Below, in pieces: positions 23,450 through 46,667 of a DNA stretch of 64,000 nt (position 1 is its first letter; every line of letters starts with the position of its first letter). This DNA comes from Camelus ferus (taxonomy: Eukaryota): positions 62,560,001 through 62,624,000 of the forward strand of contig NC_045696.1 of NCBI RefSeq assembly GCF_009834535.1, given 5' to 3'. The position numbers and the translations under genes are program-made. The notes beneath the pieces are model-generated. The model saw only the letters and a program-made list of their open reading frames with translations, did no database searches and had not been told where the DNA came from.

Positions 23450-23461
23450 GCTGCATTACAG
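23450..23461 (+). CDS. ACAP2: Putative alternative 12-nt microexon (AALQ) between exons 9 and 10
   Basis: Pyrimidine tract, then aaatgctgacacag|GCTGCATTACAG|gtaaaa; phase 0/0; positionally equivalent to recalled ACAP3 QQR-TLLQ-DFS. Confidence 0.7.
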
Positions 23462-27059: not shown

Positions 27060-27172
27060 GATTTCTCCAGTGATGATTCTAAGTTAGAATATAATGTAGA
27101 TGCTGCAAATGGCATTGTTATGGAAGGATATCTGTTCAAACGAGCCAGCAATGCTTTCAAAACTTGGAACAG
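27060..27172 (+). CDS. ACAP2: ACAP2 exon 10 (113 nt), start of PH domain: DFSSDDSKLEYNVDAANGIVMEGYLFKRASNAFKTWN(R)
   Basis: ttgtctag|GAT...AACAG|gtaata. Confidence 0.97.
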
Positions 27173-30100: not shown

Positions 30101-31274
30101 AGGGAAATGTGAATTTGACTTGGAATTCCCAGATAGTTTTAAAACCTCACCCTGTACTTCATAAAATCTAAGTATCACTTGAAAGCATTATTCTATAATC
30201 TGAAATTTAACTGAAGAGATTGTATGATATGATTGAAATAGCATAAGGAGTGAAATGTTTTATGTCGTAAGTGAACTGTTGAGCTTGTTTCTGATTGGTT
30301 TCAGATTTCTAACTTGTGGTGTCTCTTAAGATTTTTATATGTCTATAATATATATGTTTTGAAGATGTGATATCTACTAAAATAATCTTTCTGTATTAGA
30401 CCATCTTCTCAGTGTGGCAGCATCACTTCAGGCTAAAGTCAGTGCTAGTTGGATTACTAATATCTATATTTCTCCTTTGCTTTTCATGATAAATTTAGAA
30501 AAGATGAAGGAACAAGGAAAATAATTAAATATTAACATAGTTTATTTAGTAATGAGCTGTTAAAACTAATAAAGAAGCTGAATAATTACATGCTATGCTC
30601 ACTCTTTGTTGAACTAGAAAGTATAGCCAAAAGCATAAATGTTTTATATAGCATCTTAAAGCTAAGTATTCTATGTGCTGCTGGTGCAGGTATAAATTTT
30701 AGTTTTTACTGGCTTTTTATTTTAAAGTAAGAAGTATATACATAGATTAAAGGTAAACTCTATTTATGTGTGGCTTTAGAGCCTCTGCTATCATTTGATG
30801 AAAAGGGGGTGAGCAGGTGGTGGGAACTTTGCCTTATGGAAAGTTTGCATTTGTTTCAGGTTTATACAGATACATCTATAGTGATTATTTCCTTCATTAG
30901 GATGAGGAAAGGTACTATCTGTATTTTATAGCTATGACCATAAAGGCAGAAAATAATAGTGGAGTGTGCTTAGTCCTGCCAGAACCTTCTATACCATAAT
31001 ACTTGTAGAAAAATTTTGAATATTTCTGAAATATTATTGTTTCAGATTCCTAAGAGTTGGAATTAAATGTATAAATGCAAGTATGTATAATATATGAGCA
31101 AAATGCAAGATATTTTTGACTATTTTGTTAGGTTATGAGCTTAAGCCGGTTCCTTTAATTCTTGCTTTATTTTCATATCATGCTAGTCCTTTGCTTATTT
31201 TGCACATTTGCGTTTTCATTCTTTTACCACCTTTCCTTTATGTTTTAATCCTGCCCCATTTTTTCACATGACAG

Positions 31275-31295
31275 GAAAAAGCCCGATCATATCAG
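31275..31295 (+). CDS. ACAP2: Putative alternative 21-nt microexon in PH domain, (R)KKPDHI(R)
   Basis: ~130-nt pyrimidine-rich upstream tract, cacatgacag|GAAAAAGCCCGATCATATCAG|gtacca; phase 2/2, frame-preserving, no stop. Confidence 0.72.
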
Positions 31296-32361
31296 GTACC
31301 AAATGGCTTCCTTCCCCTCACTCCTACCTCTCCAATTTCCTCTTTGGCACGAGAAAGCTCATAATTAACCTGCATTTCAGTTGGATTACTTGCAATGGAT
31401 ATAAAGTCTCTTATGTTTTAAATTGGGAAGAAAATACAAACATCTTATTTGAGGAATGGAATTATACCTTTTCATTGCTTATCTCCCCAATTTGTTTTAA
31501 TCTGGAAAAGAACATTTGATATATTTATAGTTATCCAAAGAAGATACAGATTGAGTAATATGAATAACTTCATGTATATATATATTTAAGAGAAATAGCT
31601 AGTAAATGCTTTTTAAAATTTTTAGATAGTTACTTAGGAAATAATCCTTTTGGTTATAACTGTATTAATTATGTTTAAAGAAAGCATTGTTAGTTTCTAG
31701 TTTTTTTTGTTTATTATACCATTTTGGTCTTTTTCCCTGGGAAAAATTAAATTGAATTTGAAATAAAGTAGCATATACATGTTTAAACTTTTAATTTTGT
31801 TAAATGCTCACCTATTTGGCACCTATATAAATGTATTCATGAATCCATCATCTGTATAGTTTTAGTGATAAAGTTTCTACTGATTTTGAAGTTGACTTTT
31901 ACCCAAGTTCTTGATTTCAAGTGAGTTCTGGGACTAGTGATCAAAATTGTAAAAGCTACTTGATTTATTTTTTAAGGTACCTCCCCCCCACCCCCCAATT
32001 TTGTCATCTGGAATCTCTCATTGGTATTTAAAAATTAATATTTAATTGTTTATGAATAAGTTTATTGGGTTATTTCAATTTGAGATAGATATAAAGTGAT
32101 GGCTTAATCTTCTTAAAACCAAGACATTTTCCTTTTTAAAAAGTGTTTTATATTTTGACTTTGTGGTCAGTTTCTGAACTTTGTAGACTATAGTGTAATT
32201 GTCAGCACAGGTCTTTCCAACATTTGTTTTTTTATTATTTAATTACCTTTTAATGTACCTTCAAATTGCAGATAGCATGAGCTTGACATATTTAGTGTAT
32301 TTTCTATATTCCATAGACTGTGAATTGTCTCATTTTCCCTTTTATCAGAAATGTTAAGAGA

Positions 32362-32490
32362 GGGGGAGGGTATAGCTTAGTGGTAGACCGTGTGCTTAGC
32401 ATGCATGAGGTCCTGGGTTCAATATCTAGTACCTCCGTTAAAAAATAAATAAATAAATAAACCTAAACAACCTCACCCCCCCAAAAAAAA
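32362..32490 (+). mobile_element. Vic-1-like camelid tRNA-derived SINE
   Basis: GGGGGAGGGTATAGCTTAGTGGTAGA..GAGGTCCTGGGTTCAAT..AAATAAATAAACCTAA..CCCC + A-tail; TSD core AGAAATGTT. Confidence 0.9.
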
Positions 32491-34438: not shown

Positions 34439-34490
34439 ACGCTGGTTTTCAATACAGAACAATCAGTTGGTTTACCAGAAAAAGTTTAAG
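34439..34490 (+). CDS. ACAP2: ACAP2 exon 11 (52 nt), PH domain: RWFSIQNNQLVYQKKFK
   Basis: ttatttag|ACGC...TTTAAG|gtaggt. Confidence 0.96.
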
Positions 34491-46562: not shown

Positions 46563-46667
46563 TGGTTGCTGTAAATAGCGACGAGGCCAGGCGGGAGTCT
46601 CTCTTCTGTCCTGATGAGCTAGATTCACTCTTCTCCTACTTTGATACTTCTTCAAAACTACGTAGTA
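46563..46667 (+). CDS. ACAP2: Putative alternative 105-nt cassette exon: VVAVNSDEARRESLFCPDELDSLFSYFDTSSKLRS
   Basis: Pyrimidine tract, ctaac branch-like site and cctcag|TG...AGTA|gtaagt; phase 1/1; CpG-retaining coding-like sequence; resembles recalled ACAP3 RRDSLFCPDELDSLFSYFD. Confidence 0.88.

Follow-up and report, generated by a model that had tools for sequence, protein, structure and literature searches.

A conserved 21-nt ACAP2 microexon at the start of PH strand beta2 and its possible role in membrane binding or bending

The glycine that alternative splicing adds to the cytohesins sits within the beta1/beta2 loop of the pleckstrin homology (PH) domain. It is encoded in cytohesin-1, -2, and -3 by a 3-nt microexon, which preserves the frame in the beta1/beta2 region of an Arf6 regulator, and this single residue shifts the IP4 affinity of cytohesin-1 by approximately 100-fold (PMC6314551). 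A second system for comparison is ACAP1, for which BAR-PH structures are available (PDB 4NSW, 4CKG, and 5H3D): its Loop1 (residues 276-282) serves both as a membrane contact and as lattice interface II, and mutation of S277/N278/F280/K281 impairs membrane recruitment (PMC6663034). The third comprises the neural and islet microexons controlled by SRRM3 and SRRM4, which are shorter than 27 nt, keep the frame, and have, upstream of the 3' splice site, an extended pyrimidine tract with UGC (PMC12871342). ACAP2 itself acts as an effector of Rab35 and inactivates Arf6 during neurite outgrowth, phagocytosis, and myelination (PMC6724607, PMC4004601), and its GAP activity is PIP2- and PA-dependent (PMC2185579).

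We analysed a stretch of Camelus ferus DNA of 64,000 nucleotides (hereafter, the window) and found there a 21-nt microexon of ACAP2 that adds the peptide KKPDHIR. The microexon is already annotated and thus already known as an exon, and annotated isoforms carry the same seven residues at the same position of the same gene, although none of the camelid records retrieved has the insert. A function as a switch is not previously described in the searched literature. In open-access full text, there was no paper on the function, binding, tubulation, or localisation of the insert, and neither the peptide KKPDHIR nor the human event id HsaEX0001799 gave literature matches, although supplements may list the exon. 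The reading that we prefer, with a probability of about 0.45, is that this amniote-conserved exon retunes the grip of the BAR-PH module on acidic membranes or their bending, as the structure models and the analogy with ACAP1 suggest. If this is true, the exon would be the counterpart, in an Arf6 GAP, of the microexon in the cytohesin GEFs, with a different mechanism; and if the insert alters membrane binding or tubulation, the studies of the 778-residue form cover just one of the two ACAP2 forms of neural cells.

Position and splice signals of the microexon

Most of an ACAP2 gene is contained in the window, on the + strand. Ortholog exons mapped in order from 7408 to 58332, including those of the orthologs P0083 and P0069 from residue ~99 onward, and in these two proteins Pfam placed the BAR, PH, ArfGAP, and ankyrin domains in the ACAP order. 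An ArfGAP exon was 100% identical to mammalian ACAP2, and two variable linker exons agreed at 93 of 94 residues with a protein from Camelus dromedarius (next best, 87). DNA of the stretch was found in 20 of the 24 sequencing runs listed, which shows DNA presence only.

The microexon (GAAAAAGCCCGATCATATCAG, window 31275-31295, + strand) lies in an ACAP2 intron, between the 5' flank ...ACATGACAG and the 3' flank GTACCA. Both junctions are in phase 2, with which the phases of the flanking exons agree, and inclusion adds KKPDHIR in frame and without a stop, by which FKTWNRRWF becomes FKTWNRKKPDHIRRWF (FKTWNR-KKPDHIR-RWF). An earlier note on this DNA had read a 21-nt phase 2/2 exon bordered by acAG and GTacca, and it was seen as described; we regard it as confirmed to be a genuine frame-preserving alternative exon of ACAP2. 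The constitutive exon before it encodes the BAR-PH linker, PH strand beta1, the loop ASNAFKT, W-N, and two bases of the Arg codon; by tblastn, it matched residues 249-286 of P0086 at 100% and also matched ACAP1 268-289. The coordinates are collected in Table 1.

Table 1. Window coordinates of the ACAP2 microexon, its splice signals, and the flanking constitutive exons
Feature	Position	Strand	Details
Upstream constitutive exon 10	27060-27172	+	113 nt; ends AAC AG/gt, phase 2
Extended U/C-rich acceptor region	31163-31274	+	six UGC (-112 to -23), 86-nt AG-free zone, 3' splice site CAG
Cassette microexon KKPDHIR	31275-31295	+	phase 2/2; residues 289-297 of long isoform P0054 map here (tblastn)
5' splice site CAG/GTACCA and downstream pyrimidine stretch	31296-31375	+	splice site matches consensus at 6/9
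Downstream constitutive exon 11	34439-34490	+	rest of beta2 (R-R-W-F-S-I-Q), beta3

The 100 nt before the microexon were 73% pyrimidine, with five UGC at -23, -66, -74, -83, and -94 (and a further one at -112), which bears out the long U/C-rich tract with several UGC motifs that had been pointed out earlier. The 7.3-kb intron has 250 candidate AG..GT pairs that preserve the frame and enclose 3-30 nt, and the microexon ranked first among them by upstream pyrimidine content. On the + strand of the window, 9 of 1928 YAG sites were equally pyrimidine-rich, and 2 also had at least five UGC, namely the microexon acceptor and that of another ACAP2 cassette exon at 46563. A chance AG..GT pair was rejected on account of this top rank in the intron and the rarity in the window of such a tract with UGC. 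The acceptor region was also predicted to be the most unpaired of the six acceptor regions compared (0.63 vs. 0.32-0.44). The pyrimidine-rich stretch that the same reading had placed downstream of the exon is present (0.66), but it is not distinctive, as the value at constitutive exon 10, with the boundary one base off, is 0.70. Four YGCY motifs were found upstream of the microexon and UCUU on both of its sides, and UGCAUG and ACUAAY were absent within 200 nt; these counts single out no regulator. A short tRNA-like repeat with an A-rich tail is located at ~32360-32470 (+) in the intron following the microexon, and we take it to resemble a tRNA-derived SINE.

Annotation and conservation of the insert

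Included and skipped forms both exist among annotated proteins. In the first search, 116 of 120 proteins cover the region, and they consist of 81 short forms and 35 long ones, of which 34 have KKPDHIR and 1 has KKLDHIR; isoforms assigned to human, Pan, Macaca, Cebus, and Mus caroli are found among the insert-bearing cluster members. When the 44 residues around the insert were used as the query, 118 of the best 120 of 1664 matches were 100% identical, and all 90 newly found proteins carried the exact KKPDHIR. Alligator, Crocodylus, Gopherus, Pangshura, Platysternon, and many birds are among the matches listed with the insert. KKPDHIR was present in 144 of the 560 retrieved proteins, a share that reflects the search design and not abundance, and most of the insert-bearing records are predicted gene models that are mutually non-independent. 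Examples are P0122 and P0124 (human), P0131 (Mus caroli X1), P0083 (canid), P0285 (Alligator), and P0360 (Parus major). Neither of the two camel proteins retrieved carries the insert, P0014 being the short form and P0005 being without that region. The sole variant seen, KKLDHIR, belongs to P0086 (Pteropus alecto isoform X1), and another Pteropus record, P0135, has KKPDHIR.

Conservation, which had been named beforehand as a check on the exon, was found at the protein level, the peptide being identical in mammals, birds, crocodilians, and turtles, and its conservation across these groups is thus supported by the protein records. An amniote origin of the microexon is suggested. Among the best 120 of the 1664 matches, there were no lizard, snake, amphibian, or marsupial names, and the age of the exon is therefore bounded only as at least amniote. 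In fish, the insert occurred in 0 of the 119 top-ranked proteins, a list that ended at 434 bits, so that longer forms may fall below it: an insert of four residues already costs ~10 of 445 bits, and one of seven residues could drop under 434. It also occurred in 0 of 47 fish cluster members, four of which are without the region and one of which shows an unrelated NRYVR, apparently a model error. The PH domain as a whole is nearly invariant across amniotes; therefore, the invariance of the seven residues is less telling than it appears, and conserved splicing signals could also hold them. As a separate observation, an Oncorhynchus model of 1043 aa (P0001) has the PH-to-ArfGAP exons duplicated internally, by tandem duplication or as an assembly artefact.

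Insertion site, structure models, and membrane engagement

The insertion site was placed in an alignment of 90 family representatives, out of 148 new 50%-cluster matches, which were kept if the PH match was near-complete and the length was at most 1000, a filter that could exclude forms with long inserts. All 90 representatives have a span of six residues from W284 to F289, and 88 keep W284, whereas the span from K275 to W284 varied (10 in 70, 11 in 13, 12 in 5, 7 in one, and 16 in one). Because the W..F spacing is fixed and the loop length is variable, the insert, which follows N285/R286 at three residues past the loop ASNAFKT and inside strand beta2 of the short model, breaks a fixed segment and not the variable loop. 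The earlier note had put it in a basic lipid-binding segment, inside the beta1/beta2 signature K-x(n)-[KR]-x-R. The site does lie in the basic beta1/beta2 part of the PH domain, but it is the start of beta2 and not the cytohesin glycine site. The strict signature was rejected for ACAP2: this segment is N-R-R-W-F in the short form and H-I-R-R-W-F in the long one, and at the K/R position 44 of the 90 representatives have N, 15 have S, and only 6 have K, the residue found there in DAPP1 and TAPP1.

These features bear on a headgroup switch of the cytohesin type, in which the insert would reshape the pocket, alter the selectivity for PI(4,5)P2, PIP3, or other headgroups, and move ACAP2 between membranes. 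Such a switch would fit with the insert bordering the canonical beta1/beta2 binding element (PMC4704004), with its addition of two Lys and one Arg, and with the affinity shift caused by a single glycine in cytohesin-1 (PMC6314551). However, [KR]-x-R is present in neither isoform, so that no high-affinity PIP3 state from which to switch is evident; ACAPs are described as being preferentially activated by PIP2 and PA (PMC2185579), and sequence motifs are weak predictors of lipid binding (PMC4704004). The site and size of the insertion are also unlike those in the cytohesins, where one glycine acts in a domain that binds PIP3 and whose affinity switch has been measured (PMC6314551), whereas ACAP2 has seven residues at the beginning of beta2 in a domain without [KR]-x-R, any effect on lipid affinity being putative. 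We consider a headgroup switch unlikely.

Structure prediction with and without the insert, which had also been proposed, was done with AlphaFold for the canid orthologs P0083 and P0069, which differ only by the insert, using the same 90 alignment rows for both. The short form was modelled with beta1 at 267-276, beta2 at 284-292, and a pLDDT of 94 over 281-290, and the long form with beta1 at 267-275, seventeen non-regular residues, and beta2 at 293-299, with a pLDDT of 63 over 281-290 and of 86-95 in the other PH blocks. The PH fold was retained in the models, with the beta1/beta2 loop lengthened from 7 to 17 residues and confidence lower at the insert. K275 and the arginine of RWF are predicted to remain in strands, whereas W284-N285 are predicted to leave beta2 and enter the longer loop. 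The insert is not placed inside the variable loop in the manner of the cytohesins; the long model nevertheless lengthens that loop. The long model matched ACAP1 BAR-PH (5h3d_A) with a TMt of 0.88, and the Pfam PH score was 50.3 bits for the long form vs. 60.5 for the short form. In the 11 other alignment rows shown, the columns of the insert contain only gaps, and the stored variant insert is not among the alignment rows; because the representatives are uninformative on these columns, a low pLDDT is expected there whatever the true structure. A fair reading of the models is that the PH fold can tolerate the insert, the conformation of the loop itself being not really predicted.

The break in W-x-R-R-W-F could, alternatively, displace W284 and weaken the PH domain, which would make the long isoform a damped or mostly cytosolic GAP. 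The fixed spacing and the near-universal W284 in the representatives, together with the loss of strand state at W284-N285 in the long model and the fall of the PH score by 10 bits, are consistent with such an off switch, but the remaining PH domain is modelled with high confidence, the insert adds basic charge (net +2, plus a histidine and a proline), and a purely disruptive role would not need the exact peptide to be conserved. We regard it as improbable. It is also conceivable that the loop peptide makes or blocks a site for a cargo, an adaptor, or a small GTPase instead of contacting lipids, as the exact peptide is kept (144 identical, 1 variant) in a predicted flexible loop and the loop of ACAP1 also makes protein contacts (PMC6663034). 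No partner has been identified, however, and the Rab35 contact was solved with the C-terminal ankyrin region (6IF3, residues 608-777), which is far away in sequence; such an interaction patch seems to us quite improbable.

Retuning of membrane binding or bending, which we prefer, takes its argument from ACAP1. The loop ASNAFKT, which directly precedes the insertion site, is common to ACAP1 and ACAP2 in the same fold, and the residues mutated in Loop1 of ACAP1 are identical in ACAP2. The ACAP1 structures are without the insert, and the lattice and tubulation data belong to ACAP1, not to ACAP2; the role of the loop is borrowed from there, and we saw no evidence of an ACAP2 lattice. In the proposed mechanism, inclusion would put KKPDHIR at the beginning of PH strand beta2 and extend the beta1/beta2 loop to ~17 residues without unfolding the domain, with W284-N285 joining, according to the models, a longer, more basic, and lower-confidence loop. 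By analogy with ACAP1, the loop with its conserved Phe would touch the membrane and dock on an adjacent dimer within the lattice that forms tubules. Inclusion would alter membrane avidity, lattice assembly, or tubulation, and the altered membrane engagement would, in turn, change the PIP2/PA-dependent Arf6 GAP output. Because the ACAP1 loop has both membrane and lattice contacts, tuning of binding or tubulation is likelier than a lipid switch of the cytohesin type, and the fact that the insert breaks a fixed segment and yet is kept counts for a role in such tuning.

Inclusion in human cells and candidate regulators

SRRM4 favours UGC within ~20 nt of the acceptor. The camel microexon shows the acceptor feature of the SRRM3/4 type, with its pyrimidine tract, five UGC per 100 nt, and the nearest UGC at -23. 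In human, VastDB lists a 21-nt ACAP2 event, HsaEX0001799 (chr3:195312947-195312967; supplementary tables of PMC7935315), which we equate with the microexon by gene and length only, because the seven-residue insert is the only recurring 21-nt indel among the isoforms compared; the rows of PMC7935315 for this event assign it no function. Its human PSI ranges from 1 to 61. In breast, the mean PSI was 10.6 in normal tissue and 2.8 in tumours, and the corresponding values in lung were 9.9 and 1.9; overall, breast, lung, and tumours as well as uninduced HeLa and SH-SY5Y cells gave 1-11%. In a single comparison, neural progenitors reached 60.8, against 46.6 in neurons at day 50 (PMC7935315). Inclusion is thus partial and cell type-dependent as far as this human event, matched by gene and length, represents the microexon.

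Induction of SRRM4 shifted the PSI of HsaEX0001799 by +8.9 in HeLa and by +19.2 in SH-SY5Y cells, and the event is missing from the remaining 6 of the 8 SRRM4-induction sheets (PMC7935315). Both gains, for an event matched by gene and length, are below the PSI gain of at least 25 that defines SRRM4 targets in that source, and there was no rise on neuronal differentiation, the PSI being higher in progenitors than in neurons. For these reasons, a classical neural SRRM4 switch was rejected. The ACAP2 event differs from the SRRM3/SRRM4 microexons in this weak response and in the lack of a rise on neuronal maturation, although it resembles them in size, frame, and acceptor; the strong target in ACAP2 is another event, HsaEX0001804. 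By the values of the matched event, SRRM4 contributes weakly to inclusion. ACAP2 was in no main text among the matches listed for the regulator literature, and ACAP2 and its event ids were absent from the supplements of PMC12626424, PMC12868881, PMC7821500, and PMC12982621. A bioRxiv preprint (10.1101/2022.04.02.486809) names ACAP2 as an IsletMIC host gene, with the exon unspecified in the part cited.

The inclusion values also bear on the simplest alternative, that the long form is a tolerated minor isoform with no role at the protein level, kept by overlapping RNA elements or by the propagation of gene models. The predicted status of most records, the lack of the insert in the camel proteins retrieved, and the low inclusion in breast, lung, tumours, and uninduced cell lines (PMC7935315) would agree with this, but the inclusion of 47-61% in human neural cells and the regulated loss in tumours (PMC7935315), as well as the intact splice sites and the same peptide in mammals and sauropsids, are against it, and we judge it very improbable. 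The preferred reading, retuning of membrane engagement, can be drawn more narrowly as a splice switch on membrane bending: an amniote-specific exon would break a PH segment of otherwise constant spacing in the ACAP family and rebuild the loop by which ACAP proteins enter the bilayer and join a tubulating lattice. The exon would raise or lower tubulation by ACAP2 or its inactivation of Arf6 in neural progenitors, would be lost in tumours, and would be under a regulator other than SRRM4. In this narrower form, we hold it to be possible but doubtful.

HsaEX0001804 rose by 41-81 PSI in all eight SRRM4 sheets (PMC7935315), and its PSI increased from 4.7 to 63 in neurons and was near zero outside brain, retina, and adrenal in the tables cited. 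There are two candidates for it in the window, a 12-nt microexon at 23450-23461 and a 105-nt exon at 46563-46667, and the former is a good candidate to be HsaEX0001804. The 12-nt ACAP2 microexon (GCTGCATTACAG, +) adds AALQ in the BAR-PH linker and has UGC at -11, -21, -42, and -51; AALQ is also found in salmonid models, so that this exon is older or better sampled than the 21-nt exon. The 105-nt cassette exon (VAVNSDEARRESLFCPDELDSLFSYFDTSSKLRS, +) lies in the linker between the GAP and ankyrin domains, and the tract before it is 78% pyrimidine and contains five UGC, with UGCAUG ~13 nt upstream of the acceptor; it is present in annotated mammalian isoforms, and a similar segment is present in salmon.
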